Assembly: GCF_024223415.1 (NCBI RefSeq)
Contig: NZ_CP100500.1
From: Escherichia coli
GTDB lineage: Bacteria; Pseudomonadota; Gammaproteobacteria; Enterobacterales; Enterobacteriaceae
Direction: 5' to 3' (one strand)
Length of the DNA: 64,000 nucleotides
Below the pieces are notes generated by a model, which ran no database searches, was not told where the DNA came from, and was given only the letters and a program-made list of their open reading frames with translations. Position numbers and translations under genes: made by a program. Below, piece after piece: positions 1-56,492 of this stretch; the stretch's first letter is position 1; every line of letters starts with the position of its first letter.

Positions 1-1538
1 TATTCAGCTGGCAGTGCTATGCGCCACGGAAGCAGTTCGCTGACCCGGTTGACCGGCCAGTCTGCTATGACGCCAAGCACATGGCGAAGGTAGCTTTCTG
101 GATCCACGTCATTCAGTTTGCACGTCCCTATCAGGCTGTACAGTAGCGCTCCCCGCTCACCACCATGGCCAGAGCCGAAGAACAGGAAGTTTTTACGACC
201 CAGACTTACCGCCCGCAGGGCATTTTCAGCGATGTTGTTGTCGATTTCCACCCAGCCATCGTTCGCATAGTACGTCAGTGCCGGCCACTGGTTAAGTGCG
301 TACGCGAACGCCTTCGCCAACTCTGAGTGTCGCGACAGGGTCTTCATCTTTTCACGCAACCAGCTTTCCAGGGATTTCAACAGCGGTTTCGTTTTTCGCT
401 GACGTTCAGCAAGCCGCTGCTCTGCCGGCATTCCCCTTATATCCGCCTCTATGGCGTACAACTGACCGATCTGCTCCAGGGCTTCTTCCGTCAGTGCTGA
501 CGGGATGCGGACGTGCACATCGTGGATCTTTCGGCGGGCATGAGCCCAGCAGGCAGCTTCCGTTATCCCACCATTGCGATACAGCTCGTTGAACCCGGCG
601 TACGCATCCGCTTGCAGCACACCGCTGAAGCAAGCAAGATGAGTCTGCGGATGGATGCCTTTTCTGTCCGGGCTGTAAGCGAACCACACTGCAGGTGCCA
701 ACGCTGACCCGGCATTGCGGTCATCACGAACATACGCCCACAACCGCCCGGTCTTCGTCTTCTTATTACCCGGCATCAGTACCTGGACCGGGGTATCATC
801 GGCATGGAGTTTGCCGTCAGTCATGACATAGCCATGAAGCGCCTCTTCCAGCGGAGACAGCAGCCGGCAGCATGCATCCACCCAGCCCGACAGCAGTGAA
901 CGGCTCAGCTCCACACCTTGCCGGCCGTATATTTCTGACTGGCGATACAGCGGGGTGTGCTCTGCATACTTCGAGGTCAGCACGCGGGCCAGCAGCCCCG
1001 GTCCGGCGATACCCCGCTCGATGGGCCGCGAAGGTGCAGGTGCCTGCACGATGGCATCGCACTGAGTACAGGCATGTTTTTCCCGTACCGTCCGGATAAC
1101 CCGGAAGGCGCTACGCATCAACTCCAGCTGTTCGGCGGTATCCTCGCCCAGATAGCTCAGTGAACCGCCGCAGTTCGGGCAGCACGGCGCCGCAGGCAAC
1201 AGTCGCTTTTCGTCACGGGGTAGTGATTCAGGGAACGGCTTACGGATGCGGGTCTGACGCAACGGACGCTGTACTGCCGGGTCATACACCCTACCAGTCA
1301 GCGTATCGCTCTCTTTCTGAAGCTGGTTCAGATCGGCTTCCATTTGTGCGATACGGCGGGAGACTTTTTCGGAACGACTGCCGAAGTTCATCCGGCGGAG
1401 TTTATCCAGCTGCGCCTGCAGATGGTCTATTTCGCGCTCCCGGTTGCTCAGCTTTTCCTGCAGGGCGTGGATCAGCGCTTCCTGTTCGGCCAGGCGCTGT
1501 TTCAGCAGGAAGATGTCGTCAGAAGAGATGTCGTTCAT
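1..1538 (-). CDS. IS66-family transposase (orf3), about 512 aa; stop codon runs off the window edge so it is absent from the ORF track
   Basis: Minus-strand translation starts [30 protein letters not shown] at 1538, contains the CPNCGG motif near 1160-1200, and ends ...PWRIALPAE at position 3; no in-frame stop listed in that frame. Confidence 0.85.
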
Positions 1539-1587
1539 AAGCCCGTATTTTACCGGGCTTATTCTGTGACAACCAGGATAAAGAGAT

Positions 1588-1935
1588 TTACAGCATGGTC
1601 AGGGAGGTCAGCAGCCGCTTAGGCTGTCGCCAGTCGATACCTTCCAGCAGCATCGCCAGCTGCGCCTGTGTAAGGAACACTTTGCCATCACGGGCTGACG
1701 GCCAGGCGAAGCGCCCACGCTCCAGCCGTTTGGTCAGGAGGCACAGTCCGTCACCGGTGGACCACAGCAGTTTAACCTGACTGCCGCTGCGGCCCCGGAA
1801 AATGAAAACATGGCCGGACATGGGATCGTCTTTCAGCGCCGTCTGTACTTTCGCAGCCAGGCCGTTGAAGCCATTTCTCATATCGGTGATACCGGCAACC
1901 AGCCAAATTTTGGTCCCGGAAGGTAAAGGGATCAT
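1588..1935 (-). CDS. IS66 Orf2-like accessory protein (TnpB of IS66 family)
   Basis: 115-aa [33 protein letters not shown]..., matches the IS66 orf2 family from memory. Confidence 0.85.
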
Positions 1936-2333
1936 CGCTTCAGTTCCTGTATCAGCAGAGTCAGGAGCTTTTCGCTGACATTGCCATTGAAGCGGAGCGT
2001 CCCGTGCCGGAACGTTACCTCACAGCTGATACTGAGGGTTTCCGGGTCCTCTGCGAGCGATTCTGGCTGTTCGGCAGCTGCATCGAGAGTCACAGGAAGT
2101 AGCTGGGGGCTCTCTGAAGAAGGTAATAGCAGCTTTCCCTCGCGCCATTGTTGTCGCCATTTGAACAACAGATTGGCGTTAATGCCATTTTCAAGAGCAA
2201 GTTTTGAGATGGATATCCCGGGTTCACAGGAGGCAGCAACGAGCTGCTGTTTAAATTCGGGAGGATAATTAGGGCAGCCTTTTCGCCTGCCGGGAGTCAC
2301 ATTTTTCTGCATATCTGACACTTTGGTTCCCAC
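1932..2333 (-). CDS. IS66 Orf1-like accessory protein
   Basis: 133-aa ORF overlapping orf2 by 4 bp, as is typical for IS66 family elements. Confidence 0.75.
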   Translation of the reverse strand: MGTKVSDMQKNVTPGRRKGCPNYPPEFKQQLVAASCEPGISISKLALENGINANLLFKWRQQWREGKLLLPSSESPQLLPVTLDAAAEQPESLAEDPETLSISCEVTFRHGTLRFNGNVSEKLLTLLIQELKR

Positions 2334-2764
2334 TACTTATTTGGTGGACACCACTTTGTCTAATTCGTCAGATTCTGACCAGACGGTTCAGGCTGTACGC
2401 TTACGCCTGAAAGCTGACTGCCTCCTGCTGAGGTGGGAGGCTATGATTCAGTGCGTTTATAGTCTCCGGGGTATGCATGTACCGGAGCATACCATTTCTG
2501 GTGGATAACAAGCCGGCACATTCAGACTGCAGTGAAGATGGAGGCACCTGGTTGTGAAGAACGTTTCTGCCCGTGGCTGCTTCGCATCATCAATGGTATT
2601 CATACCCGCTCAGAAATGACCGGGTGCTGAAGCCCTCCGTTATCGCGCAGTATAATGACGTATATGATCTGTGGACGAGTGAGCGGCGTGCCTGATGTAC
2701 GCCGCTATTACTGTATTTTACCACAGGGCTGGTTTTCTGCTGCCAGCCCTGTGGTTCTCAGACA

Positions 2765-3373
2765 TCAACTGTGAGCGGCATCAACCGATGTACGGTATGC
2801 CATAAGCACGTACTGATCCATCAGATTTGTCAGTGGTTCACTCTGACCCTGACGTGCAATGATCCATTGCTCCAGATCTTTTTCTGATTTGTGTTTCAGG
2901 TTTTTCGTCCAGTCGTCAAGGCTGTTTCCGGTCATTAAGTCAAGCCAGCAGAGCCAGACCAGTTTGAGACGTAACTCCGTGCCGCCAAACTGACGGAAGA
3001 GGCTGATCAGTTTGTTTGCCAGAGAATGTTGCTTCAGGCGCTCACATTCAGACAGCAGGATCCCTTCCAGCATCGGATGATGAACCAGCAGGTGTTCGCT
3101 GGTGCATAAATTCACCACCAGATCATCATCCAGGGACGGGGAGCTCCGTTTGTCCGGACCATAAATCAGCCGGTGCAGACTCTGGGGAACGATGGCAATC
3201 TCCGGTTTTTCGCCATTGAATGACACCCACCCGGGCGTCAGATTATGGAAATAGTAGATATTCGGATGACACACGCCCCATGATACGGCGTGCCGGGTGA
3301 AGCCGGTCAGCCATTTCTGGTAGTTTTCATGGAGCAGCTCGTAACGGGTCTGATACTGTTGTTTCATTTTCAT
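2765..3373 (-). CDS. hypothetical protein, island-associated, co-transcribed downstream of the alpA-like gene
   Basis: 205-aa ORF; likely start at an ATG a few codons inside the listed GTG start, with a GAGGA ribosome-binding site upstream; no family recognised. Confidence 0.5.
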   Translation of the reverse strand: MKMKQQYQTRYELLHENYQKWLTGFTRHAVSWGVCHPNIYYFHNLTPGWVSFNGEKPEIAIVPQSLHRLIYGPDKRSSPSLDDDLVVNLCTSEHLLVHHPMLEGILLSECERLKQHSLANKLISLFRQFGGTELRLKLVWLCWLDLMTGNSLDDWTKNLKHKSEKDLEQWIIARQGQSEPLTNLMDQYVLMAYRTSVDAAHS

Positions 3374-3460
3374 ATTCCTCACGGGGGATAACAGGCAGCA
3401 GAGCGCCGCCGGCAGGCCGGAGATTGCGTCTGCTGTGGGCGAAGGGTTAGTGGTTAAAAA

Positions 3461-3667
3461 TTACGGACGGGACTGTGCAATACGCGCCTGCAGCCAGGCT
3501 TCCACTTCACTTTTCAGCCAGCGGGAGCTGCGCCCCATTTTGATGGGCGCAGGAAAGCCCCCATCTTTGATGAGTTTGTCAAACCACTTATCGGTTAGGC
3601 CGGTCAGTTGAGTGATAAACGCCATGTCGACCATCTGGTCATCCATCAGCGAAACTGGGGTAGCCAT
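3461..3667 (-). CDS. AlpA-family phage regulatory protein (excisionase-like DNA-binding protein), about 68 aa
   Basis: MATPVSLMDDQMVDMAFITQLTGLTDKWFDKLIKDGGFPAPIKMGRSSRWLKSEVEAWL - typical AlpA/MerR-like HTH; start placed at the internal Met. Confidence 0.8.
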   Translation of the reverse strand: MATPVSLMDDQMVDMAFITQLTGLTDKWFDKLIKDGGFPAPIKMGRSSRWLKSEVEAWLQARIAQSRP

Positions 3668-4792
3668 GAGAATGTTCCTCCGGATGTTGTTAAACCAGCC
3701 GGTGTGGTCATGAAAACAGCGCGCCACCTTCACCGGCATAACAACCGGGGAGAAACGTAAAAAATAATCGGGAATGTGGCTGTCCGGAGATAAACGGGGG
3801 GATTGCGATGGCAGAGCCGTAGCGGAATCCCGGAGGGGGGTGTTGCAAAAGATGCTTCCGCACGCACGCGCGATAAAGAGGGGATAGTTTTCGTGAGGAC
3901 AGGGAGAGAAGCAGGCGTTCTGATAATTGCAGAGTTGTTTTCGGAGGTGGTTACAGTGAGTCAGCCCGTTCCTGGCGAGCAGGAGACTGATATCACCGAT
4001 GGGATAAGGTTGTCTGATTGGTATTATAAATATAAGAAGTCATCAGAGAGTAACGTAAAGGATTTGCCAGAATAACCTAAGAGAGTAAATCTCTCCGGTA
4101 ACAGAGCGCTATGAAGCATTCTGTATCAGAGTGCAGATACATGAACGCTGATGCGTAAAATCAGCAGTGACACGCCAGCTCCCCCTATGCCCATTCCTGT
4201 ATAAGACATGAACTGAGTGTATTAATGCTTCTGCCCTGAGACTGAGCCGGTGAGTGAGGGGCTGAGAAATCCCTCTTGACACAGCTCTAACCAGAAATAC
4301 TTCCCCGGTTGTTGCGGTGCGTCCGGATCCCCGATAACGGAACACTAAGGCTGTATTGCGGGACACCGGGTAAGTAGCAGCCCGTAAGGCGTTCTGTCAA
4401 CGCCAGAAAAAATGATTTCCCACACGCGTTATAGACTCACTCCTGTGGACCTGGAAGCCCGTAACTCTGCGGTTGCCCACTGACTGACGGAACTGACCGC
4501 AAATTTTACGAGTGCGTGCTGGGCTTCAGTCTGGTCACCTGAGCGTTCGGTAACGGAGGCGCGGGCGGTAATAGGCTGATTTTCAGGTATTACCGGCTTA
4601 CAGCGTGTGGTTGATATTGAGGGGCTGTGAGTTTCGCGTATTTGTCAGAAACCCAGACGAGTTTTCCTGTATGGGACGAAATAAGGCAGCGGCAATACCT
4701 GGAAAAATTTAATATGGTATGAAGGAGAACCTGTCGGTTACGCTTAATATACCCGGTACACTGTCAGCTCAGGGGATACATGAACCGTTATC

Positions 4793-4993
4793 TCACCAGC
4801 TACACAGTATATACACACTGACGCTGACAGTAGTCAGCAGGACCACAATAATCAGTGCCAGCAGTATGGTAACGATACGGTCTGTATTCCGGTAATAGCC
4901 GAAGGGGTCGACAGAACCACAATACGGGCAACACACTGTATTATGAGTAATCGCGTTTCCACAGTCCCTGCACTTCTTTTTGCGTATCACCAT
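4793..4993 (-). CDS. small zinc-ribbon protein with C-terminal transmembrane helix (about 66 aa), function unknown
   Basis: CRDCG...CCPYCG double CxxC followed by a hydrophobic stretch ILLALIIVVLLTTVSVSVYIL; GGAGGG ribosome-binding site 5 nt upstream of the ATG. Confidence 0.5.
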   Translation of the reverse strand: MVIRKKKCRDCGNAITHNTVCCPYCGSVDPFGYYRNTDRIVTILLALIIVVLLTTVSVSVYILCSW

Positions 4994-5156
4994 CACTCCC
5001 TCCTCACAGCCTTACCCGTAACCGGTTTTTTACATTAAAAAAACAACGCTGAAAATTCAACCGTCAGTCCGGAGACGACCGTTCGGGTTATCACAGAGTG
5101 CCTGAGACAGTGTCCTGCCGGAGGTCACTTCAGGGACTCTGCGCATTTTTTACGAC

Positions 5157-5762
5157 GTGGCTATTCCGTATGAACCATACGGAGATTTAACCATGACCTA
5201 CAAATACAACCCCTTCTGGCAGCAACGTATTCGTGAGACGGTGCGGCACGCACTGAATGTTCATCCCCGCCTGACGGCATTGCGGGTTGACCTGCGTTTC
5301 CCGGATGTACCGGCAGCAACGGACGCAGCTGTGATATCCCGCTTCATCAATGCCCTGAAAGCCCGAATCGACGCTTACCAGAAACGTAAGCATCGGGAAG
5401 GTAAACGCGTGCATCCCACCACCCTGCATTACGTCTGGGCCCGGGAGTTTGGGGAGTGCAAAGGTAAAAAACACTATCACCTGATGCTGCTGGTTAACCG
5501 GGATACCTGGTGTCGTGCCGGTGATTACCGTGCTCCGGGATCACTGGCCGGGATGATTAAACAGGCGTGGTGCAGTGCCCTGGGAGTGGATGTCGGGTGC
5601 CATGCCACGCTGGTGCATTTTCCGGCCTGGCCGGCGGTGTGGCTGGAACGCGATGATGACACTGGCTTTCAGCAGGTGCTGGAACGTGCTGACTATCTGG
5701 CGAAGGAACATACCAAAGCTCACTGCACCGGTGAGCGCAATTTTGGCTGTAGCCGGAGTTGA
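5157..5762 (+). CDS. HUH-type rolling-circle Rep-like protein (inovirus Gp2 / YagK-YfjJ-like family)
   Basis: 201-aa ORF with the motif KKHYHLMLLV (His-hydrophobic-His) and candidate Tyr motifs; family assignment from memory, not searched. Confidence 0.55.
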   Translation: MAIPYEPYGDLTMTYKYNPFWQQRIRETVRHALNVHPRLTALRVDLRFPDVPAATDAAVISRFINALKARIDAYQKRKHREGKRVHPTTLHYVWAREFGECKGKKHYHLMLLVNRDTWCRAGDYRAPGSLAGMIKQAWCSALGVDVGCHATLVHFPAWPAVWLERDDDTGFQQVLERADYLAKEHTKAHCTGERNFGCSRS

Positions 5763-6015
5763 GCACGACTGGCGCGCCAATATCCGGCAAACCAAAAGTA
5801 TGGGTTGTTGTCTGGCGGCAACGATGTATCCACTCGCCCACTGACTGTTTTTTACGTCAGTGTTCCATTGTGTGACAACCACAGTGCTGTAACAGCAACC
5901 AGCCTGCTTTACCCAAACTCCAGTCCAGATTTTAACTGAACCGCCATTCACACCCTGACCACGCTGCCCGTACCGGGACGGCTGTTGCCTGCGTGTCGTC
6001 TGGCGGCTGAGGAAT

Positions 6016-6423
6016 ATGACTATGTACGCAAAATCCTTTATCGCTCTTGATGGCAACGGACGTCTGACGGGCGCCCGTACTGCACAGGCCGCACCTTATG
6101 CTAACTACACCTGCCACTTGTGTGGCAGTGCACTCAGATACCATCCGCAATACGACACTGAACTTCCCTGGTTTGAACACACTGACGACAGGCTGACAGA
6201 GCACGGTCAACAGTGCCCTTATGTCAGGCCGGAGCGCAGAGAAATACAGTTGATTAAACGTCTGCAGCAATTCGTACCGGATGCCTTACCCGTGGTGCGT
6301 AAAGCCAGCTGGCACTGCAGACAATGTCACCACGATTATTATGGGGAGCGGTACTGCACACACTGCCAGACCGGAGGATTCAGTATTCCCCGGACAACTC
6401 AGGAGGAAATATGCGAATTCTGA
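6016..6423 (+). CDS. Cys-rich hypothetical protein A (putative double zinc-ribbon)
   Basis: 135-aa ORF; conserved pattern CxxC...PWFEH...C...CxxC...DYxGExxCxxC shared with the next ORF. Confidence 0.55.
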   Translation: MTMYAKSFIALDGNGRLTGARTAQAAPYANYTCHLCGSALRYHPQYDTELPWFEHTDDRLTEHGQQCPYVRPERREIQLIKRLQQFVPDALPVVRKASWHCRQCHHDYYGERYCTHCQTGGFSIPRTTQEEICEF

Positions 6424-6821
6424 ACTGTTATATGGCGAATGACAGCAAAGGCCATTTTGTTACGGCGAAAGAAGCAGCGAAGCACAACCGCCAGGACGTT
6501 TTGTGCTGTGTGTCCTGTGGATGCCCGTTAACACTTCAGCGGGGCAATGACGGACAACCACCGTGGTTTGAACATGACCAGATGACTGTCGCTGAGAAAA
6601 TCCTGCTGCGATGCACCTGGCTTGACCCGGCAGAGAAAGAGGCCCGTCGTTTGCATCTGCAGGGTATGACGGTTCCGGATTATACGGTGAAGGTGAGAAA
6701 GTGGTTTTGTGTGATGTGTGACGAAGATTATGAAGGAGAAAAGTGCTGCCCGCGTTGTGGTACCGGGGTATACAGCAGGGAGGGGGGGCTGCAGGAAGGC
6801 AACTGGAAGGATAGGAACTGA
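6411..6821 (+). CDS. Cys-rich hypothetical protein B, paralogue of A, translationally coupled
   Basis: ATG at 6411 lies just upstream of the stop of the previous ORF (6421-6423); same Cys/PWFEH pattern. Confidence 0.55.
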   Translation: MRILNCYMANDSKGHFVTAKEAAKHNRQDVLCCVSCGCPLTLQRGNDGQPPWFEHDQMTVAEKILLRCTWLDPAEKEARRLHLQGMTVPDYTVKVRKWFCVMCDEDYEGEKCCPRCGTGVYSREGGLQEGNWKDRN

Positions 6822-7024
6822 GCGGTTCAGTCGCGGAAATCAGTTGCAGAGCTGTAATGATATCTCCGGGAGTGCTGCGTTGGTAGGGGCATCCCGGGAT
6901 AGAGAAATTTTAGCACTTTGCCCTGAATGATTGTAGACGTTCCGAGTACTCGTACCGGTCTGAGTTATTACAGTTAGATATTCACTTTTTCTCCCGCATA
7001 CTTCACATCTGTCAACGACGGATG

Positions 7025-8757
7025 AAAAGTGGTTCTTCCGCAACCTGGGTGGAAGAAAATGGATGAAACTTTCTGGCGAACAAGGATCTAAGCTGTTTTA
7101 AGTTATGGGCAACGCAATGCACTCTCTTAAGACACTTCTACAGTTACCTTGCGGATGGCGATGCAGTCGACAAATTATTAGCTCTGACGGTATAACCCTC
7201 CATCTCCACGGAAAACGCAAAACAGCACAATGTCCTGAATGCTTTAAGCGTAGCGACTCTGTTCATAGTTGTCGTCGGCGCCGGATACAGCATCTACCCT
7301 GCTCAGGGCAGACGCTATGGCTTGTATTTTCCGTCCGCCACTGGTACTGCCGTAACCCGGCTTGTTCACGTAAAATTTTTGCCGAGTCGCTTGCTCCCTT
7401 CGCCGGTTCACACCAGCAGTCTTCACAGGCGTTACAAAATTTACAACGTCAACTGGGATTAATAGCTGGAGGTGAGGCTGGAAAACGGGCTGCAACGGCA
7501 GCGGGTCTCCGTTGCAGTGCTGATACTCTTCTTCGCAGGGTATCAATACCCCGGAGACGAAACAGTCAGGCGCGCCTCATGTCGGTATTGATGAGTGGGC
7601 GTGGCATCGGGGCCACTGCTGCGGTATGTTAATAGTCAATCTTGATACTCACCGTCCCCTCGTCCTGCTTCCCGGCCGTGATCAGCGTACGCTGGCGACC
7701 TGGTTCAGAAAATATCCGGAAATACAGGTTGTCTCGCGTGATCGCAGTGGAGTCTATGCGACAGCAGCACGTGAAGGTGCACCTCAGGCCAGACAGGTGG
7801 CCGATCGATGGCACCTGCTAAAAAATATTGGTGATGAGCCTGAACGAATGATGTACAGACATATGCCTCTGATACGTCTTGTTGTCAGAGAGTTATCACT
7901 GAAGAAATCACCTGAGCCAGAAATATCTGTGCCTGTAGCATCGCTCCGTCGTCTGGAACGCCTTAAACAGCACATCCGCAAAAAACGGCATCAGCGTTGG
8001 ACAGAGGTTATGGCCCTGCATAACAAGGGATGTAGTTTCAGGGAAATATCCCGTATTACAGGCCTGTCGCGAGTGACAGTCAGTCGCTGGGTGGGTTCAG
8101 GAACATTCCCTGAAATGTCAACTAGGCCTCCAAAGCGAGGGCTTCTGGACCCATGGAGGGAGTGGTTAAAAGAGCAACGAGAATGTGGTAATTATAACTC
8201 CGGCCGGATATGGCGGGAAATGGTGGCCAGGGGGGTTACAGGCAGTGAAACCATCGTCAGGGATGCTGTTGCCAAATGGCGTAAAGGCTGGATCCCACCG
8301 GTTACTACTGCCGCAAGACTTCCTTCAGTGTCCCGGGTAAGCCGCTGGTTGATGCCCTGGAGAATAATCAGGGGTGAAGAAAATTATGCTTTCCGATTTA
8401 TTAGTCTGATGTGTGAAAAAGAACCGGAGTTGAAAATAGCGCAGCAACTGGTACTCGAGTTCTACCGTATTCTGAAAACCTAAAATAAATCACAGCTAAG
8501 CAGCTGGTTCACTCGGGTCCACGAAAGCGGCTCAGCAGAACTTCGGTGCGTAGCTGCGGGGATGGAAGCTGATGCTGCGGCTATATGTGAGGCAATCAGC
8601 AGTCGCTGGAGTACTGGTGTTGTCGAAGGTCATGTAAATCGCCTGAAGGTGCTGATACGCCAGATGTATGGTCGAGCCGGACTTGAACTACTTAGGCGGA
8701 GGGTAATGAGTCCACTGGCATGAAAATCTTCACCCAGGTTGCGGAAGAGCCACTTTT
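7025..8757 (+). mobile_element. ISL3-family insertion sequence with imperfect terminal inverted repeats, decayed
   Basis: Left end aaaagtggttcttccgcaacctgggtg at about 7025-7051 and its near-perfect reverse complement at about 8731-8757; encloses an ISL3-type transposase. Confidence 0.7.
7105..8722 (+). pseudogene. ISL3-family transposase, disrupted by a frameshift near 7588 and an in-frame TAA at 8481-8483
   Basis: N-terminal zinc-finger region (CPECF...), ...IDEWAWHRGHCCGMLIVNLDTHRPL readable only after a frame change, then ...VVEGHVNRLKVLIRQMYGRAGLELLRRRV continues in frame after the stop. Confidence 0.75.
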
Positions 8758-8766
8758 GCACTGTTC

Positions 8767-9095
8767 GTGACAGTATGGCCTTTATGTACTCACTTTGTTA
8801 CCGGTAGCTGGATCATCACTACCGTGCTGCAAATGGTGGTGAACAGCATCAATTGTGGAATGAATGTTGCCGAAGCGACCAATGCGCCTCGTTTCCACTA
8901 TCAGTGGTTGCCGGACGAGCTGCGTGTTGAAAAGGGTTTAGTCCGGATACGCTCAAGCTGCTGGATGCAAAAGGTCAGAAAGTGGCGCTGAATGAGGCGA
9001 TGGGCAGCACGCAAAGCATTATGGTTGGGTCGGATGGTGAGTTGTACGGCGCATCCGACTCGCGCTTGGTGGATGATTTAACGGCGGGGTATTAA
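8767..9095 (+). pseudogene. ggt: gamma-glutamyltranspeptidase C-terminal fragment, frameshifted in an A-run near 8935
   Basis: GSWIITTVLQMVVNSI...NAPRFHYQWLPDELRVEKG then, after a 1-nt frame change, FSPDTLKLLDAKGQKVALNEAMGSTQSIMVGSDGELYGASDSRLVDDLTAGY; starts directly at the ISL3 right end. Confidence 0.7.
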
Positions 9096-9134
9096 TTGAC
9101 ATCCCCCGGCGCAATGTGCCGGGGGATAATGGTT

Positions 9135-10169
9135 TTATGCGGTCAATAATCGTCCGGGATTATCGATACAGAGTTTTTTGAGGATCGTTTTATCGACGCC
9201 GCGCTCCGCCAGATAGGCCAGAAAAACATCTGGAACAAATCCCCAGCCATTACCGCCATTTTTAGCCCACATTTGTTTAAGGAAGACATCGTGGCTGAGA
9301 ACAAGCTGATCGGCGTATCCCAACTCAATGAGATGAGCGACGGCATCGGCAGTCTCCTGCACCCCTGGCGCTATTCCCTCTTTCGGGAAGGTAATGTCTA
9401 GGCCAATCATGTCGAATTCCAGCCAGACACCTTTATCAAGCATTTTCCGCTGATACGCCACGTCTTTTCCTGACGGATCCGAGTGTGCGAGAGAGACTTT
9501 ATTTGGCGAGACGCCCATTTCACCTAACACAATGTCGAGTACTTCATCACCGCGACGAAGCCAGCCCGGCATGTGAATATTCATCGCCACATGAGGATTG
9601 TTAATCTGTGCCAGCGAGGCAGCCCGCAAGCTGTTATGCTCGGCTTCGGTAAATGTCGGTGAAACACCTATTTCACCGATCATTCCGGCACGAATATCCG
9701 TATCGCCAATCCCTTGATTCAATTCTTTATCGATCGTTGTCGCCAGTTCATCAACCGTTTTATGAATTCTCTGGCTTTCAAATTTTTCCAGGTAGGGACC
9801 GGAGGAAGCAACAATATTCAGACCTGTTTTTAATGCGACTTCTCGTAATGCCTGCGCATCTCGTCCGATAGACTCAGACCCTGTGGCATCAATAATGGTG
9901 CGACCACCGAGCGAGATAAAGTTATTGATTTCGAAGATCACATCTTCAATAGGTTTGCGGTCCATATTATCAGCGCAGCAATAAGGATCGTGTTTTAATG
10001 CCCACTGGATTTCTGCCGTGACTTTTTTATCAACAAGCCGTTGTGAAAAAGGATAGCAAGGAGCATCCACAACAGAGGAAAGATCGTTGAACAGATGTTC
10101 ATGAGGAAGTGTTAGCCCCATATCTTCACGGGCGACGGGGCCCGTCACAGTTTGTAGATAATCTTTCAT
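9135..10169 (-). CDS. phosphotriesterase-family metal-dependent hydrolase (Php-like, TIM-barrel amidohydrolase; possible lactonase)
   Basis: 344 aa; N-terminal GLTLPHEHL metal-binding motif characteristic of the PTE family. Confidence 0.8.
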   Translation of the reverse strand: MKDYLQTVTGPVAREDMGLTLPHEHLFNDLSSVVDAPCYPFSQRLVDKKVTAEIQWALKHDPYCCADNMDRKPIEDVIFEINNFISLGGRTIIDATGSESIGRDAQALREVALKTGLNIVASSGPYLEKFESQRIHKTVDELATTIDKELNQGIGDTDIRAGMIGEIGVSPTFTEAEHNSLRAASLAQINNPHVAMNIHMPGWLRRGDEVLDIVLGEMGVSPNKVSLAHSDPSGKDVAYQRKMLDKGVWLEFDMIGLDITFPKEGIAPGVQETADAVAHLIELGYADQLVLSHDVFLKQMWAKNGGNGWGFVPDVFLAYLAERGVDKTILKKLCIDNPGRLLTA

Positions 10170-10171
10170 GA

Positions 10172-11137
10172 TTATACCTCCATTTTCTTCATTGTTTTCG
10201 AGGTTCTGTATTCCGGAATAGTGGTAACAATTGCACCGACCAGTGCAAACAGTGTTCCGATGATCGTGACCAGATAAACGCTATTGCCCAGCGATGGAAT
10301 TAATACGTCAATCAATACTGATCCCAGTAACTGGCCCGCCGTTGAAGCAACCCCCAGCATCAGTAACCCCAGACCTCTGACCAAAATGGCCATTAAACCG
10401 ATAGACATTAGTCCAAGCGGGCCGCCAAGATACATCCACCAGACATCTGGTAATTGAACAGTGACGTGCCCTAATGCGACACGAATAGCAAGCGCTGTGC
10501 CTAAAACACAAAATCCAACGATGAAATTCTAGGTGATTGAAACCAGCATGGATCCCGTAGCTTCAGCTACTTTTGCATTTCCAGCGGGCTGCCATCCTGC
10601 AAGCAAACCAGCTAAGAACGGAAGAATGGCAAGTAAGATGAAAGAGGTAGAATGCCACTGAGGTGACACAACAAAAATCGTAGCAATAACCGCAAATAAT
10701 GCACCGATGATGCAATAAGGGGTAAAGTATTTTTTCTCGTCGACACCGATACCAAAGCGATCGCAAAGTAAACCAGACAGCAATAGCGCGGAGATCAGTG
10801 CGGTTTGAAACGTTGCGACCCCGAGTGCGCTGGCTGATGCGCCTTCAGAAAATACCACCATCGCTCCACAGAGACCGGCAAACCAGTTCCAGAGAGGAAC
10901 TTTTCGGTTTTTAATCAGAGAAGGAATTGCCGCAAATTGTTGCCGGGTTTCTTTTCGCGCCATAATAATAAAAAACATCACGACTAAACCACTGGCAAAG
11001 GAGATAACTGCGCATGCATTACCATCCTGTAACCAGTGACCTAATTGACCATTCACCGCTGATTGCATAGGGGAGAGCATACCCGCAAGAATCGTGGCAA
11101 GCATCCATAAGGGAGTTGAGTACTTATTCTTTTTCAT
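10172..11137 (-). pseudogene. DMT-superfamily (DUF606/YdcZ-like) membrane transporter interrupted by an in-frame amber codon at 10529-10531
   Basis: ORFs 10529..11137 and 10172..10435 are in the same frame; the sequence between them encodes hydrophobic helix-like residues; the single TAG (plus-strand cta) separates them. Confidence 0.7.
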
Positions 11138-11193
11138 ACATCAATCCTTCTATTATAGTAAATGGAGTAACTGGAGTTACCCCATTATTATTA

Positions 11194-11952
11194 TTATCTT
11201 GCAATATGAGTCAGTATATTTACCCACAACGCGGTATAGAACGGCCAGGACATAAACTGCTGTGTACCCCAGTGCGGTGAACAGTCACTCATAAAGCAGG
11301 CTATTTTCCCGTTGTGATAGTTACCAAAGACCAGTAATGGAGCGTTGTTTATTGTTAATACCACCTCAGCATTTTCTTTAGCGATCGCCCGGTTATAACC
11401 TAGGAAAAAAGGATATTCAGAGAACCCTTTAATAACTGGATGTTCAGGTTGTGATGGCTGTGCAATAACACCCTCTGGTTTTTCGACACGATCGTCACCA
11501 TCTAACATCGTAACCGGGAGCACATCAGCCAGAACTGTATTTTTATAATTGGCTTTTGCTTCAATTCCCATGAATGAGAGATAGCCGCCAATCATCAATA
11601 ACCCACCACCGTTATTCACATATTCTTTAATCAGTTCGAGAGCGTTTGGTTTTATGCGAAGCTGATAAAAAGTATCATTTTGTAGCAGGAAAGTATTACT
11701 ACCAATATCACTAATAACGATGGCATCATATTGTTCTAACTGTGCCACATCTTCAGGGAAGGCAATTTGTACCGTATGTGCTGGCATATAGGTGACATCT
11801 ACCTGACTATTTTTCAGACACTGGAGTAACCAGGTCGCACCTTCTTCATATTTACTTGAGGTAAAACTGTCATATCCTTTTGAATGAATCATATGAATAT
11901 GCCAGGATTCCCCAATAAAGAGCACTTTTAGTGATTTTTTGGTGTTATTCAT
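11194..11952 (-). CDS. ThuA-like / class I glutamine-amidotransferase-like domain protein
   Basis: 252-aa ORF; fold assignment from sequence impression only. Confidence 0.45.
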   Translation of the reverse strand: MNNTKKSLKVLFIGESWHIHMIHSKGYDSFTSSKYEEGATWLLQCLKNSQVDVTYMPAHTVQIAFPEDVAQLEQYDAIVISDIGSNTFLLQNDTFYQLRIKPNALELIKEYVNNGGGLLMIGGYLSFMGIEAKANYKNTVLADVLPVTMLDGDDRVEKPEGVIAQPSQPEHPVIKGFSEYPFFLGYNRAIAKENAEVVLTINNAPLLVFGNYHNGKIACFMSDCSPHWGTQQFMSWPFYTALWVNILTHIAR

Positions 11953-11965
11953 TCTCTGTCCCTTC

Positions 11966-13180
11966 TTAATGCGTAAAAATAGTTTGCTGATAATGTATAC
12001 TCTGAATTCGATGTATCACAGATTCATGTTCAGGCATGTCGGAAGCATTGCTTGTCTCCACCGCTAGGGATGCAAAGGCGCTGGCATAACACAGTGCTGA
12101 TTCCAGTGATTTTCCTTTCGCAAGTCCTGATGCCAGAGAGCCGTTAAACGCATCCCCGGCTCCTGCCGTATTTTTAACGACCGCTGGAAACGCTGGCGAA
12201 TGAATGAATTTTTTGCCATCAAATGCGAGCGAGCCCTTGCTACCGAGCGTGATAACCGTGTTTTTTACCCCTTTATTGTGGATAGCTTCTGCAGCTCGTT
12301 TAGCTGATTCAAGATCGTGTACGTCTATGCCGGACAGTAAACCAGCTTCTGTTTCATTGGGGGTGATATAATCAACATCCTGAATAAGTTCGTTGACGAT
12401 ATCATTATAGGGTGCCGGGTTAATAATGACCGGGATACTGTTTTTTTGCGCCAATGTGATCGCTTGTTGCAGAGCGGTATAATTTGTTTCGAGCTGCAGA
12501 AGTATGACATCAGAATTAATAATCGCTTCTTTCTGAATAGTTATTTCATCGGACGACATTGTCATGTTGGCACCGGGATAGATCGCAATAACATTATCGC
12601 CAGTACCTTCATTAACAAGGATCGTGGCAGTTCCGGTTTGCGTTTCTTTCGTTTGATAAATTATACTTTTATAAATCTTAGACGAATTCATAAAGTTGAT
12701 CGCATAATCACTAAAGTGATCTGTACCTACTTTTGTTATGAAATAAACATCAGTATCGGCAAAGCTTGCTGCCAGCGCCTGGTTACAGCCTTTTCCCCCC
12801 GGTGAAAATATAAAATTACTTGCCAGAAGCGATTCTCCGATAGTGGGAAGCCTCGGCAAATAACTGATGATATCAACATTAAACGAACCAATAACGCATA
12901 CTTGACTTTTCATAGTTGAGTGGCCTTTTTTTATTCCCTGGGCTGTATCATAATTTTCAAGCGCATAAGCGATTTCATTTTTCGCAATAGTATCAAGCGA
13001 GTCTAGGACGATAAAAGCACCGCCATGACATCGAGTCAGATAGCCAAGCCTGGCAAGTTCATTAAGATCTGAACGAATAGTTTCTTTCGTTACATTGAGG
13101 CTATTGGACAGATCGGATACTTTTACAGAACCGAATTTACTGAGTCGTTTCAATATTTCATGATGGCGTTCAAATTTCAT
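11966..13180 (-). CDS. fusion protein: N-terminal DeoR-type HTH plus PfkB/ribokinase-family carbohydrate kinase
   Basis: N-terminus HHEILKRLSKFGSVKVSDLSNSLNVTKETIRSDLNELARLGYL (DeoR HTH); kinase motifs GGKGCNQA and NTAGAGDAFNGSLASGL. Confidence 0.7.
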   Translation of the reverse strand: MKFERHHEILKRLSKFGSVKVSDLSNSLNVTKETIRSDLNELARLGYLTRCHGGAFIVLDSLDTIAKNEIAYALENYDTAQGIKKGHSTMKSQVCVIGSFNVDIISYLPRLPTIGESLLASNFIFSPGGKGCNQALAASFADTDVYFITKVGTDHFSDYAINFMNSSKIYKSIIYQTKETQTGTATILVNEGTGDNVIAIYPGANMTMSSDEITIQKEAIINSDVILLQLETNYTALQQAITLAQKNSIPVIINPAPYNDIVNELIQDVDYITPNETEAGLLSGIDVHDLESAKRAAEAIHNKGVKNTVITLGSKGSLAFDGKKFIHSPAFPAVVKNTAGAGDAFNGSLASGLAKGKSLESALCYASAFASLAVETSNASDMPEHESVIHRIQSIHYQQTIFTH

Positions 13181-13287
13181 GCTTCACCTCACTTCAGTTA
13201 CGTTAATATCTATCGATGTATATTGATGTGATAATCACCATAAAGTGGCGGGGAAAAGCAAAAAAAAGCAAAAATAGCCTGAGAAAA

Positions 13288-13850
13288 GGTAAGCGTTAAT
13301 GGAGAATCATATTGATGCTTATTTATTGGTGAGAACTACGTTCCATGGCAGGAGTTCATCAATACGGTTGGAAGGTTATTCCGGCAGTACGCTCAGGATA
13401 TGGCGCAGATACGCTTCCGGATCAATGTCGTTCAGAAGGCAAGTGCCGATAAGCCCATACAACAGTGCACTGCGCTCGCCGCCGAAGAACATAAAGTTTT
13501 TATTTCCGAGACAGATGGCACAAAGGGCTTTTTCCGCGGCATTATGTCTGCCTCCGCCTGACCGTCAACACTGTAATAACAGAGTGCGCCCCACTGATTC
13601 AGTACACAGCTGAACCATTCTCCCAGTCTGGATTTTTGGATAGCGTGGCATTTTTCTCCACCATGCATGCAGTGAGTCCAGTAACAGTTTGCTCTTCTTC
13701 TGCCTGACCACAAGATGTGCTGGACTGGTAAACGATGGGGATACCTGCTTACGCGAGAGCAATAAGTGGCTGGCCACAATTCTCGGTACAAAACTCTGCT
13801 GAATAGCAGCGATTTTCCCAGCGTGGTGCGTCGTTTTCATTTTACTGGTT
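13288..13850 (-). mobile_element. IS66-family remnant: terminal repeat (GTAAGCG at 13288) plus frameshifted 3' part of a transposase gene
   Basis: Minus-strand translation near 13327-13380 gives PSNRIDELLPWNVVLTNK*, resembling the IS66 transposase C-terminus; upstream frames are broken. Confidence 0.6.
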
Positions 13851-15230
13851 CTAAGTTAACAATTATCTGTTCACTAATGACTACTCTAAAAACTTGTATC
13901 AGGACTATCACTTATTTAAGTGATATTGGTTGTCTGGAGATTCAGGGGGCCAGTCTATAAACTTTTTACAAAAGGATGAATGCAGAAGGTTACTCTAATG
14001 GCCAGAGTGATGACAATGATGGTCAGACGTTGACCTGCAGAAACTGCATTTTAATTGGTCTATAAAGTCTGCAAGAGGAATCAGGGTCAGATCAGTGAGT
14101 CTTATCGCGGCCCGAAGCTATGACTGAAAGAAGGCTGGATACAGAATTGCAACAATTTGGCAATGTCAGAACACAGAAGCTTTGCAAGCAGGTGAAAGGT
14201 TATGTCTAGCAAAAGGAGTATATCAGAATACATCTACTGATGTACAAAACACAACAATAGCTTCATGATATATAAATACGTGATGACGAGTGGTACTCCG
14301 CATGGTTATTTAACTTCTCAGCACCACTAATGATCCTGAGCAACTTCGTATTTGGGCCATTGCCATGGAGTAGAAAGCTGTGTCTGAGAATGCAGAATTT
14401 GAGAAAAGAATTCGCTTTCTTGGAGAGCTTCTGAAAATGGCACGCTAACAACGTTTTGTTAAAAAATGTGAATCACTTGCCGGGGCTGCATTTTCTATTC
14501 GAGGAGAATGTTGACGTAGATATTACAGAAATCTCAGCGCATCAGGATAAACTGCTACCTTAGGTCAACCACCAAAAGAAAATACAATACGTCCAGTTTG
14601 TATGCCTTTAATAACACATCTTCTAAATGTTGAAGAATTATCCCGCCTGCTGAAGAACGTTGCTCTGAGTGTGATAAACCTTTTTATTCTTGATGATGTC
14701 AGCGAGAAGATGGAATATATCCCCGACTGGGTCGTGGTTACCCGGTTAAACATCTGGTGGCGCTAATAAATCTGGCAAGTCACATTCTGTTGAATGCTGT
14801 GACAGTGCCTTACCGAGAGAGCGAAATTGTGGTGTTCTAGTGCATAGTCGCCACCATTCCGGATAATTCTATTGCGTTGTTTTACAAGTTCTTTTACAGC
14901 GCAGATCTGTTGCTGACGTTGAATCAATAGCCTGGATTTCAGAACACAATGCCCGTTTGCTGGTTGGTCCGGCAGTAGCATTAATTCATTATCTGAATGA
15001 AATGTGTCAATCCACAGAAACCGCTGTCAATGACACATTTTGTCGGACGTTAACACGAGAAAGTCTGGCTATTCCGTAATGCCATCTTATTTCGTAATGG
15101 ATTGAGAATGCTGGATTTTTAATTATATTACGCGCAGTATTAATCGCGTAAATGTTTTGCGGTCAGCAACGGTGGGGGATCCATTGTTCTGTTCAATGAA
15201 TACCATCATACATTTGAATCAGGAGTCGGT

Positions 15231-15776
15231 ATGATGATTTTGGTGACGGGGGGCGCACGGAGCGGGAAGAGTCGCCACGCAGAGGCGCTTATTGGGGACT
15301 CTTCACAGGTTCTGTATATCGCTACCTCGCAAATCCTTGATGATGAGATGGCTGCACGGATAGAACATCATCGGCAAGGCCGCCCGGAGCACTGGCGCAC
15401 AGTGGAGCGCTGGCAACATCTTGATGAATTAATTCATGCAGACATTAACCCGAATGAGGTTGTGTTGCTGGAATGCGTTACCACAATGGTGACTAATCTG
15501 TTGTTTGATTATGGCGGCGATAAAGACCCTGATGAATGGGATTATCAGGCGATGGAACAGGCGATTAATGCTGAGATTCAGTCGTTGATTGCTGCCTGCC
15601 AACGTTGCCCCGCAAAGGTTGTATTAGTGACTAACGAAGTGGGAATGGGGATTGTGCCGGAGAGTCGTCTGGCACGACATTTTCGTGATATTGCCGGGCG
15701 GGTAAATCAGCAGTTGGCCGCTGCGGCAAATGAAGTATGGCTGGTGGTTTCGGGTATTGGAGTAAAAATCAAATGA
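15231..15776 (+). CDS. cobU: adenosylcobinamide kinase / adenosylcobinamide-phosphate guanylyltransferase
   Basis: 181 aa, [19 protein letters not shown]-loop; first gene of cobU-cobS-cobT. Confidence 0.95.
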
Positions 15777-16516
15777 GTAAATTATTTTGGGCGATGCTCT
15801 CATTTATTACGCGTCTGCCTGTACCGCGTCGCTGGTCCCAGGGACTGGATTTCGAGCATTATTCTCGCGGTATTATTACTTTTCCTTTAATTGGATTATT
15901 GCTTGGCGCGATTAGCGGGCTGGTCTTCATGGTGCTGCAGGCATGGTGTGGCGTACCACTGGCGGCACTGTTTAGCGTACTTGTGCTGGCGCTGATGACC
16001 GGGGGATTCCACCTGGACGGCCTCGCCGATACCTGTGATGGCGTATTTTCTGCACGTAGCCGCGATCGCATGTTGGAAATCATGCGTGATAGCCGTTTAG
16101 GCACCCATGGCGGTCTGGCATTGATTTTTGTTGTACTGGCAAAGATTCTGGTATTAAGCGAGTTGGCTCTGCGTGGCGAACCGATCCTTGCATCGCTGGC
16201 GGCAGCATGTGCGGTCAGCCGCGGGACTGCCGCATTATTGATGTATCGTCATCGTTATGCGCGGGAAGAAGGGCTTGGCAATGTGTTCATTGGCAAAATT
16301 GATGGGCGACAAACCTGCGTCACACTCGGCTTAGCCGCTATTTTTGCTGCCGTATTATTGCCGGGTATGCATGGTGTGGCTGCTATGGTGGTGACGATGG
16401 TGGCGATTTTCATCCTCGGTCAGCTTCTCAAACGTACGCTGGGCGGGCAAACCGGCGATACGCTGGGAGCTGCTATAGAGCTTGGTGAACTGGTCTTCCT
16501 GCTGGCACTGCTATAA
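15773..16516 (+). CDS. cobS: adenosylcobinamide-GDP ribazoletransferase (cobalamin synthase)
   Basis: 247-aa membrane protein; ATG overlaps the cobU TGA (ATGA). Confidence 0.95.
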
Positions 16517-16527
16517 AGAGACGTGAC

Positions 16528-17607
16528 ATGCAAACACTTGCCGATTTACTGAATACGATCCCTGCTATCGATCCTGCCGCTATGTCGCGTGCACAACGGC
16601 ATATTGACGGGTTACTCAAACCTGTTGGTAGCCTGGGAAGGCTGGAGGCGCTTGCCATACAACTGGCGGGAATGCCGGGGTTGAATGGCATACCGCATGT
16701 GGGCAAAAAAGCGGTACTGGTTATGTGTGCCGATCACGGCGTCTGGGAGGAAGGGGTCGCTATTTCCCCAAAAGAAGTGACAGCCATTCAGGCTGAAAAT
16801 ATGACCCGCGGAACAACCGGCGTGTGTGTGCTGGCAGCACAAGCGGGCGCTAACGTCCACGTAGTTGATGTTGGTATTGATAGTGCTGAGCCTATCCCCG
16901 GGCTTATCAACATGCGTGTCGCACGAGGTAGCGGCAATATTGCTTCAGCTCCGGCAATGAGTCGCCGTCAGGCTGAAAAGTTGCTTTTGGACGTCATATG
17001 TTATACGCGGGAGCTGGCAAAAAACGGTGTCACGCTGTTTGGTGTAGGTGAACTGGGGATGGCAAACACGACACCGGCAGCGGCAATAGTCAGCACAATC
17101 ACTGGCCGGGATCCTGAAGAAGTGGTTGGGATTGGCGCAAACCTGCCGACAGATAAACTGGCTAATAAAATTGATGTTGTGCGCCGGGCGATTACGTTGA
17201 ATCAACCAAATCCGCAGGATGGCGTTGATGTCCTGGCAAAAGTGGGTGGATTTGATTTGGTCGGAATGGCTGGCGTGATGTTAGGCGCTGCTTCCTGCGG
17301 TTTACCCGTGTTGCTGGATGGATTTCTTTCTTATGCTGCCGCGCTCGCAGCCTGCCAGATGTCTCCTGCAAACAAACCGTATCTCATTCCTTCTCACCTG
17401 TCGGCAGAAAAAGGGGCGCGTATTGCGCTGTCGCATTTGGGGCTGGAGCCTTATCTCAATATGGAGATGCGTTTAGGTGAGGGGAGTGGCGCAGCTCTGG
17501 CGATGCCCATCATCGAAGCTGTCTGTGCGATATATAACAACATGGGCGAACTTGCTGCCAGTAATATTGTTCTACCGGGGAATACGACTTCTGATTTGAA
17601 CAGTTAA
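16528..17607 (+). CDS. cobT: nicotinate-nucleotide--dimethylbenzimidazole phosphoribosyltransferase
   Basis: 359 aa; operon position. Confidence 0.95.
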
Positions 17608-17668
17608 AAACGAAAAGTCTGATAAAAGCTATACTTAACGGATAGCTTTCGCGACTTAGGAAAGGGAC

Positions 17669-18604
17669 ATGATGCGTCGTGTAAATATTTTTTGCTCATT
17701 TGCTCTGCTTTTTGCCAGCCAAAATAGCCTGGCGGTAACTTATCCATTACCTCCAGAGGGTAGCCGTTTAGTGGGGCAGTCGCTTACTGTAACTGTTCCT
17801 GATCACAATACTCAGCCGCTGGAGACTTTTGCCGCACAATACGGGCAAGGGTTAAGTAATATGCTGGAAGCGAATCCGGGCGCTGATGTTTTTTTGCCGA
17901 AGCCTGGCTCACAACTCACCATTCCGCAGCAACTGATTTTGCCCGCCACTGTTCGTAAAGGGATTGTGGTTAACGTCGCTGAAATGCGTCTTTATTACTA
18001 TCCGCCAGACAGTAATACAGTGGAAGTCTTTCCTATTGGTATCGGCCAGGCTGGGCGAGAAACCCCGCGTAACTGGGTGACTACCGTTGAACGTAAACAA
18101 GAAGCACCAACCTGGACGCCAACGCCGAACACCCGGCGCGAATATGCGAAACGAGGGGAGAGTTTGCCCGCATTTGTTCCTGCGGGGCCCGATAACCCCA
18201 TGGGGCTGTACGCGATTTATATTGGCAGGTTGTATGCCATCCACGGTACCAATGCCAATTTTGGTATTGGGCTCCGTGTAAGTCAGGGCTGTATTCGTCT
18301 GCGTAATGACGATATCAAATATCTGTTTGATAATGTTCCTGTAGGCACTCGTGTACAAATTATTGATCAGCCAGTGAAATACACAACGGAACCGGATGGT
18401 TCAAAGTGGCTGGAAGTTCATGAGCCGCTGTCGCGCAATCGTGCAGAATATGAGTCTGACCGAAAAGTGCCATTGCCGGTAACCCCATCTTTGCGGGCGT
18501 TTATCAACGGGCAAGAAGTTGATGTAAATCGCGCAAATGCTGCGTTGCAACGTCGATCGGGAATGCCTGTGCAAATTAGTTCTGGTTCAAGACAGATGTT
18601 CTAA
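17669..18604 (+). CDS. ldtA: L,D-transpeptidase (ErfK/LdtA)
   Basis: About 310 aa, signal peptide, YkuD-type catalytic region with conserved ...SQGCIRL. Confidence 0.9.
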
Positions 18605-18625
18605 GAGCGTTGATAATTAGAAAGT

Positions 18626-18655
18626 AAAAAGCCTGCTCGAAAGCAGGCTTTTTTG
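18626..18655. terminator. bidirectional Rho-independent terminator hairpin between ldtA and asnV
   Basis: aaaaagcctgctcgaaagcaggctttttt. Confidence 0.7.
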
Positions 18656-18659
18656 AATT

Positions 18660-18735
18660 TGGCTCCTCTGACTGGACTCGAACCAGTGACATACGGATTA
18701 ACAGTCCGCCGTTCTACCGACTGAACTACAGAGGA
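18660..18735 (-). tRNA. asnV: tRNA-Asn (GUU)
   Basis: Reverse complement matches the E. coli tRNA-Asn sequence including CCA. Confidence 0.95.
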
Positions 18736-18990
18736 ATCGTGTGAACGGGGCGCATATTAATGGCAGTGCATGGTGATGTCAAAGGGTGAAATGCATTTTT
18801 TTGTTTGTTTGCTGCCAATTTCAACAAAGTGGTGAGCTTTCAATCTTATTGGGTAATGAACCATCGTGGTGCATACCCTCCTTTTATAGGGCAGGTGAAT
18901 GCGACTGCAGATAAAAAGAGCCAATGACGAATCTATCATAATCTCTTATTTGACAGTTGGTTAGCTTGCGCATCAACGCCAAAATAGAAC

Positions 18991-19006
18991 TGGCAAGCAT
19001 CTTGCA
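18991..19006 (+). promoter_or_regulatory. sigma-54 promoter (-24/-12 element) for nac
   Basis: TGGCAAGCATCTTGCA fits TGGCAC-N5-TTGCA with correct GG-N10-GC spacing, about 55 bp upstream of the nac ATG. Confidence 0.7.
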
Positions 19007-19061
19007 TTCTGGTTGTAAGTAATGGCGGCACTTGGGCCGACTCTTAAAAACCGGAGGCAAC

Positions 19062-19979: not shown

Positions 19980-20080
19980 GCGTTATATCGGGATGGAATA
20001 AGATGCGGGTTTTTATTATTTGTTATGCCGGGCATTAGACTTTAACAATAACGGAAAATCTGAACTGCCCGGAGTTTACC

Positions 20081-56405: not shown

Positions 56406-56492
56406 AACACATCAGATTTCCTGGTGTAACGAATTTTTTAAGTGCTTCTTGCTTAAGCAAGTTTCATCCCGACCCCCTCAGGGTCGGGATTT
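56406..56492 (+). ncRNA. dsrA: DsrA small regulatory RNA (activates rpoS, represses hns)
   Basis: AACACATCAGATTTCCTGGTGTAACGAATTTTTTAAGTGCTTCTTGCTTAAGCAAGTTTCATCCCGACCCCCTCAGGGTCGGGATTT matches DsrA as recalled, including its terminator. Confidence 0.9.

Follow-up and report, generated by a model that had tools for sequence, protein, structure and literature searches.

An Escherichia coli segment beside cobU is probably a stepwise mosaic part of the PAI-cobU island rather than an IS66-bounded unit

The genomic island that lies beside cobU in extraintestinal pathogenic Escherichia coli, PAI-CFT073-cobU (also PAI-cobU or GI-cobU), has been catalogued (PMC7545054), and E. coli K-12 has the CP4-44 island at the same chromosomal position. 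We analyzed a 64,000-nucleotide stretch of E. coli contig NZ_CP100500.1 (RefSeq assembly GCF_024223415.1), which we call the window, in which a first-pass annotation made from the sequence alone had described an IS66-bounded accessory segment next to cobU. In that description, an intact IS66 element and a second, diverged IS66 remnant bracket about 10.9 kb of cargo. Our analysis argues instead that positions 1 to 13957 are the cobU-proximal part of the known PAI-cobU island, put together stepwise as a mosaic from several different insertion sequences (IS), and that they do not form a unit bounded by two IS66 copies. We put the probability of this reading at about 85%. The structure is already known from the published PAI-cobU, and the ISEc8 copy at the left of the window is one further strain-specific IS insertion.

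Two other described systems bear on this locus. In compound transposons (Tn5, Tn9, and Tn10), as in the window, non-IS DNA lies between two family-related IS sequences. In Salmonella, RikA (STM3547) is a ribokinase of 404 amino acids with an internal Met90 and a catalytic Asp343, and the role and substrate of its four-gene neighborhood, rikA-STM3548-STM3549-STM3550, are unknown (PMC13432705). The window carries the same genes in the same order, which we call the rikA cassette.

Relation to PAI-cobU and CP4-44

The location given in the first-pass annotation, the variable CP4-44 locus beside cobU, agrees with alignment to K-12. Positions 13956 to 14840 are 99.8% identical to the K-12 yoeG region, which is annotated inside CP4-44, and positions 14837 to 20000 are 97.5% identical to K-12 yeeH-cobU-cobS-cobT-ldtA. 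The two K-12 matches overlap by 4 bp at window positions 14837 to 14840, the site of the K-12 IS5H insertion, which is empty here. The features at this border are as follows.

13958 to 15230, no strand: yoeG/yeeH pseudogene region with IS4 and cbiP remnants, directly upstream of cobU; IS4 and cobalamin-biosynthesis fragments are annotated here in genome T2
15231 to 15776, plus strand: cobU, the first core gene beside the island; the cobU-ldtA region is 97.5% identical to K-12

The interior of the segment matches PAI-CFT073-cobU. Positions 2404 to 13957 align to the interior of that island in five collinear blocks at 96.5 to 99.6% identity, and the two islands share the place beside cobU, an IS66 remnant, the rikA cassette, a 3′ fragment of ggt (ggt′), a dead ISL3 element, and the zinc-ribbon, YfjJ, and AlpA genes. 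The window differs from PAI-CFT073-cobU in having no 9.2-kb hma-ibrAB-yaiO segment, in lacking the ISEc10 and ISEc20 insertions of that island, in having gained ISEc8 at a site unseen elsewhere, and in having a stop codon in its DMT-type transporter gene. In addition, the far part of the island (fbp, dynamin, and yeeS-cbtA) is outside the window. The far boundary of the island, yoeF/tmaR with a yeeS-yeeT-cbeA-cbtA module, was seen in T2, WCHEC040047, and CFT073 and is upstream of window position 1. CP4-44 of K-12 has the same chromosomal position, the same yoeG/yeeH region (99.8% and 97.5%), and an IS2-like remnant at 88% identity, but it has nothing that matches window positions 2405 to 13741 and carries IS5H and yoeA′::IS2 instead. 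Its sole IS66 relic, yoeD, is inverted relative to that of the window and lies at the other end of the island.

We surveyed 5,426 complete E. coli genomes for the junctions of the segment. The segment is accessory and not conserved core in most E. coli, being present in 12 to 47% of the genomes depending on the junction. At least 80% of window positions 1 to 14000 is present in 1,538 of them, and the best overall match in the collection has 98.8% identity, with a different arrangement.

The border with the core genome also carries traces of older gene content. IS4 and cbiP fragments lie just upstream of cobU (14739 to 15079), and related genomes have yoeF, a fragment of the PduV family, at the opposite island end. 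The cbi-pdu region has been lost in E. coli. With cbiP and IS4 fragments at one end and a PduV fragment at the other, the island therefore fills the gap left by the lost cbi-pdu region.

The two IS66-family sequences

The two IS66-family sequences and the relic that adjoins the second of them are listed below; ORF stands for open reading frame.

1 to 2404, minus strand: ISEc8 (IS66 family), cut by the window start; 99.4% identical to the 2,442-bp copy in TO60
1932 to 2333, minus strand: tnpA ORF of ISEc8
1588 to 1935, minus strand: tnpB ORF of ISEc8
3 to 1538, minus strand: tnpC of ISEc8, 512 amino acids, with LZ, zinc-finger, DDE_Tnp_IS66, and C-terminal domains
13289 to 13714, minus strand: decayed ISEc23-like IS66-family remnant, consisting of the right inverted repeat and the last ~137 tnpC codons, with no left end
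13746 to 13957, no strand: IS2-like (IS3 family) terminal remnant, corresponding to K-12 IS2F positions 1086 to 1331 (the terminal 246 bp) at 83 to 90% identity

The left element has the tnpA-tnpB-tnpC organization of ISEc8, and its TnpC matches Pfam DDE_Tnp_IS66 (9e-107) and NCBIfam transpos_IS66 (5e-137). It also has the GTAAGCGTACAGCC terminus, with the left inverted repeat ending in CGCTTAC at 2398 to 2404. The description of this element as intact is right for the three ORFs and the left end and wrong for the right end, which is cut off by the window start: the last 38 bp, which hold the right inverted repeat, and the final base of the tnpC stop codon lie beyond it. The copy in TO60, which is labeled ISEc8 in RefSeq, has this right-end repeat. 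It is complete, with termini GTAAGCGTACAGC and an 8-bp target duplication on either side; unlike it, the window copy shows neither the right end nor a target duplication within the window. In a sample of distinct complete ISEc8 insertion sites in unrelated contexts, six of eight had 8-bp duplications, and the flanks had no common target sequence. We also considered a target preference of ISEc8, as the best matches to the junction query ran 8 to 17 nucleotides past the IS end into flanks like GAAAG(C)TGACTGC. We rejected this preference; the eight other ISEc8 sites in the unbiased sample had unrelated flanks, and the resemblance arose because the best matches were selected among thousands of hits.

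The junction between ISEc8 and the cargo was not covered in any of the 5,426 genomes when we searched with a 200-bp query. In TO60, T2, and WCHEC040047, the sequence reads through the insertion point without a break (...cgtttttcc|GCCTGAAAGCTG...); the conserved left flank of this empty site reads, in reverse complement, ...GGAAAAACGTTGCAGTTAAAG. As the sequence at 2405 runs on leftward in these three genomes, the left "boundary" is the product of a late insertion, specific to this strain, into a conserved island of greater length. The ISEc8 copy appears to be recent and to have entered an intergenic island site by simple transposition.

The right-hand remnant is a different kind of object. The first-pass annotation had drawn it from 13288 to 13850. 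An IS66-family remnant is present there, in the same orientation as ISEc8 as had been claimed, but it spans only 13289 to 13714; the sequence at 13746 to 13957 is the IS2-like relic and not IS66, and its terminus at 13957 forms the junction to the yoeG region. By tblastn, the remnant covers residues 401 to 537 of ISEc23 TnpC, with deletions and frameshifts. Its DNA matches the end of the TO60 ISEc23 copy at 83% identity and the end of ISEc8 at ~65% (66% over 151 bp and 74% over 58 bp). The full-length TnpC transposases of ISEc8 and ISEc23 are 64% identical, and the inverted repeats of ISEc8 and the ISEc23-like element diverge past GTAAGCGT. The two IS66 ends had been read as a related pair; they are related only at the family level.

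The motif GTAAGCG is present at both ends as described, on the minus strand at 2398 to 2404 and on the plus strand at 13289 to 13295. The 7-mer by itself is not significant, with 13 matches against 7.3 expected, and its weight comes from its placement exactly at the ends of the IS66 homology. The common orientation and the common GTAAGCG terminus are a matter of family membership and coincidence and do not reflect a common history.

The whole PAI-cobU/CP4-44 island is flanked by two inverted ISEc23-like right-end remnants whose termini face inward. At the far end, this is yoeD, which adjoins the pduV remnant yoeF; at the cobU end, it is the remnant of the window. At only ~88% identity, the two are probably independent relics.

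Assembly of the mosaic and competing explanations

Between the two IS66-family sequences, the window holds the heterogeneous cargo that had been described: island genes, ISL3, the ggt fragment, and the four-gene cassette at 9135 to 13180 are all present. The features up to the cassette are as follows.

2405 to 7008, no strand: CP4/P4-type island backbone by Pfam matches; GC content 52%; collinear with PAI-CFT073-cobU at 96.5 to 99.6% identity
2765 to 3382, minus strand: hypothetical gene
3461 to 3739, minus strand: AlpA-family regulator (Pfam)
5157 to 5762, plus strand: YagK/YfjJ-family gene (Pfam)
6016 to 6423 and 6324 to 6821, plus strand: two DUF7828/zinc-ribbon genes (Pfam)
7009 to 8773, plus strand: defective ISL3-family element with 43-nucleotide inverted repeats and a transposase split into 7105 to 7632 and 7626 to 8483
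8782 to 9095, plus strand: frameshifted ggt 3′ fragment, the last ~104 codons (residues ~499 to 602); tblastn with Citrobacter Ggt gives 85% and 66% identity in two frames

The stretch from 3740 to 5156 is ORF-poor, with short ORFs only. GC content is 56.6% in ISEc8, 52% in the backbone, and 43.8% in the cassette (9135 to 13180). An orthologous copy of the ISL3 element is annotated as a pseudogene in RefSeq. We found no target-site duplication around the ISL3 element at 7009 to 8773, where the flanks are cttcacat and tatggcct, which implies that a rearrangement took place at ISL3 and not a simple insertion.

The junctions other than that of ISEc8 are widespread in the 5,426 genomes. The junction between ggt′ and the phosphotriesterase-family (PTE) gene is present in 2,529 of them, nearly all at 99% identity or higher, that between rikA and the IS66 remnant in 1,981, and the junction from the IS66 remnant through the IS2-like relic to yoeG in 671. 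Set against the zero for ISEc8, these counts mean that both cargo and remnant are widespread and old, with ISEc8 as a late, lineage-specific arrival.

These counts bear directly on the model of the first-pass annotation. In that model, the IS66 copies make up, or made up in the past, a unit resembling a composite transposon, which imported the intervening 10.9 kb or is able to mobilize it. The model draws on real features, namely, DNA of foreign composition flanked by two sequences of the IS66 family that share their orientation and have GTAAGCG termini. However, the flanks are two different IS species and not copies of one IS as in the compound transposons, and the 426-bp relic has only the inner inverted repeat and codons 401 to 537, the IS2-like remnant having replaced the rest, so that it offers no usable outer end. 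The whole unit with both its junctions was never found at another locus or in another genome; its left junction is absent from the collection where cargo and remnant occur in ~2,000 genomes, the cargo sequence extends past the ISEc8 site in other genomes, and the segment was found on plasmids in only 3 of 8,142 places. Homologous recombination between the two IS66 sequences is precluded by their divergence, and the remnant lacks an outer end; mobilization or deletion of the segment by this pair is therefore not expected. We therefore rejected an IS66 composite transposon and regard the model as very improbable. A different explanation, which we consider unlikely but far more credible than a composite unit, is that the segment is essentially ancestral E. 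coli DNA that was gained once before the species diversified, with strain differences arising mainly by deletion and with the IS as passengers. The fixed chromosomal position is in keeping with this, as are the high identity (at least 99%) among carriers and the presence of the ggt′/PTE junction in up to 47% of genomes. K-12 also keeps flanking remnants (the yoeG region, the IS2-like remnant, and yoeA′), and the window itself has a 9.2-kb deletion relative to CFT073.

The anatomy of the segment speaks against ancestry of this kind. IS ends lie at most of the module borders (ISL3 at 7009 and 8773, IS66 at 13289, and the IS2-like element at 13957), and ISL3 has no target duplication. The block also holds a second, truncated ggt, which matches the resident copy at only 92% identity, and the modules span 13 points of GC content. 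All this shows that DNA was acquired and joined in connection with IS, even if most of the later variation was loss, and the ancestral explanation complements the stepwise mosaic more than it competes with it. The part of the first-pass annotation that spoke of IS-mediated assembly at a known variable locus is thus supported, in the form of a stepwise, IS-driven mosaic.

The stepwise mosaic probably arose in the following order. A chromosomal block, ggt′-PTE-DMT-GATase-rikA, whose collinearity with other genomes is described below, would have been captured from a putative Escherichia-like donor into a CP4/P4-type island. The block may have entered by IS-associated recombination or a transposition-linked rearrangement, with its ends at the dead ISL3 and at the right inverted repeat of an ISEc23-like element. 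The latter would later have been truncated by an IS2-like element, and a subset of strains would then have undergone the 9.2-kb hma-ibrAB-yaiO deletion exactly at the IS2-like terminus. The mosaic would have been inherited at the locus in about a third to half of E. coli. Active ISEc8 would have inserted last, in the lineage of this strain, where an 8-bp duplication, GCCTGAAA, is expected, the other end being outside the window.

Several points weigh against this account. The window-left end of the ISEc8 copy and its flank are outside the window, and simple insertion with a target duplication is deduced without being seen. The source genome is not among the 5,426, and the only limit on the age of the ISEc8 insertion is that it was not seen in any other genome. 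Junction anatomy and identity levels are the basis on which the donor and the sequence of the older events are deduced. The search turned up no donor genome of higher identity; among species representatives, the best PTE match reached 87% at the protein level.

The material missing at 13957/13958 is the CFT073 segment with the hma receptor gene, ibrAB, and the yaiO-yaiP cluster; the TO60 version is 11.8 kb. CFT073 and TO60 carry a further 9 to 12 kb at 13957, and the deletion junction of the window is common to 671 genomes.

Other IS66-family members are found at other positions of the island: ISEc22 in T2, ISEc8 in TO60, where it lies within the PTE gene, and ISCro1 in WCHEC040047, beside a GTPase gene. 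The T2 ISEc22 element (2,453 bp, with duplication GAAGATGT) is an independent insertion in the same orientation, 393 bp left of the window's ISEc8 site. At two loci in other assemblies, ISEc8 lies directly downstream of a YagK/YfjJ gene and two DUF7828/zinc-ribbon genes, the trio of window positions 5157 to 6821, in what is apparently a different island copy. A caution follows for annotation: DNA that looks foreign is not necessarily a mobile unit when it lies between two IS of one family with matching orientation, and junction surveys across genomes settle the question fast.

The rikA cassette and other features of the window

The rikA cassette is the only part of the segment with open biology. 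Its present place is a virulence-associated island found in a third to half of E. coli, to which it came from a ggt-linked locus. Its four genes are listed below.

9135 to 10169, minus strand: PTE (amidohydrolase) gene, homologue of STM3550 and Pmi1525; Pfam PTE 9e-47; Protein Data Bank (PDB) 3rhg/4qsf, E 5e-174
10172 to 11137, minus strand: DMT/YdcZ-type transporter gene, homologue of STM3549, a pseudogene; Pfam DMT_YdcZ on the N-terminal ORF; internal stop between 10435 and 10529
11194 to 11952, minus strand: GATase1-like protein gene, homologue of STM3548; Pfam GATase1_like 1e-111; PDB 2gk3 (the STM3548 structure), E 7e-145
11966 to 13180, minus strand: rikA homologue, DeoR helix-turn-helix and PfkB ribokinase, 404 amino acids; TIGR02152 1e-84; HTH_DeoR and PfkB

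All three features of STM3547 noted above (the length of 404 amino acids, Met90, and Asp343) were found in the window homologue, in which M90 and D343 are conserved and which is 81% identical to the orthologue of Salmonella enterica diarizonae. The closest solved structure to the PTE protein is that of Pmi1525 from Proteus mirabilis, for which esterase activity has been reported (PMC5341072). The four genes are in STM3547-STM3550 order, with synteny to Salmonella, Citrobacter, Proteus, Providencia, and Budvicia, and protein identity to the Salmonella cluster is 80 to 96%. A convergent ggt lies downstream, as in Citrobacter and S. enterica diarizonae. Unlike the Salmonella cluster, that of the window is displaced into the cobU island, is bounded by IS ends, adjoins only a fragment of ggt, and is not intact, the transporter gene being interrupted. 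The internal stop of the transporter gene is also annotated in T2 and WCHEC040047, and the gene is intact in TO60 and CFT073. The transporter is the most conserved protein of the cassette (94 to 96% against Salmonella and Citrobacter, with 80 to 87% for the others), yet it carries the stop here.

Outside E. coli, we scanned species-representative genomes for the cluster and found it in several genera, including Citrobacter (PTE 87% identical), S. enterica diarizonae (85%), Budvicia, Providencia, Klebsiella spallanzanii, and Proteus. Three Citrobacter genomes and S. enterica diarizonae show unbroken homology of 76% at the DNA level from window position 13275 to 8802, that is, from 14 nucleotides off the IS66 terminus into the ggt fragment. 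In Citrobacter, homologues of yhhX-yhhY flank the cluster on one side and a full-length ggt in convergent orientation on the other; in K-12, the place between yhhY and ggt is taken by yhhZ-yrhA-yrhB. From this unbroken collinearity, which includes ggt, and from the placement in Citrobacter, it follows that the block was lifted in one piece from a yhhY-ggt locus. In the window, it is bounded by the ISL3 element without a duplication on one side and by the IS66 right end on the other.

The donor was perhaps Escherichia-like and outside present-day E. coli; we infer this because ggt′ (8782 to 9095) has 92% DNA identity to the resident ggt of E. coli K-12, against 80 to 82% to the ggt genes of Salmonella and Citrobacter. 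No native ggt-linked copy of the cassette was present in the 5,426 E. coli genomes: carriers have the truncated ggt′ at 99% identity or higher, and all others match only the resident ggt at 90 to 93%. We tentatively propose, at somewhat less than even odds, that the block is a relic of a yhhY-ggt locus of the Escherichia lineage that was rescued into the cobU island by IS-assisted recombination, and that the island then became the sole E. coli home of a sugar-type pathway. If so, the pathway core (GATase1-like, DMT, PTE, and usually a PfkB kinase) would be one conserved from Enterobacterales to Actinobacteria, and the IS66 pair would remain uninteresting.

The GATase1-like/DMT/PTE trio is syntenic in Enterobacterales and in many Actinobacteria (for example, Georgenia, Actinotignum, Streptomyces, Brachybacterium, and Saccharopolyspora) at 40 to 64% protein identity. 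A PfkB kinase (~30% identical) adjoins the actinobacterial trio in several of these, and Georgenia also has a divergent LacI regulator. The conservation of the trio suggests that it may form a self-contained, sugar-type pathway.

A search for structured RNAs with Rfam found none within positions 1 to 15000; elsewhere in the window, it found only tRNAs, DsrA, and RseX. The tRNAs are four tRNA-Asn and one tRNA-Ser, with no island inserted at them in this strain. The core small RNAs RseX and DsrA are at 47982 to 48071 and 56406 to 56492, respectively.

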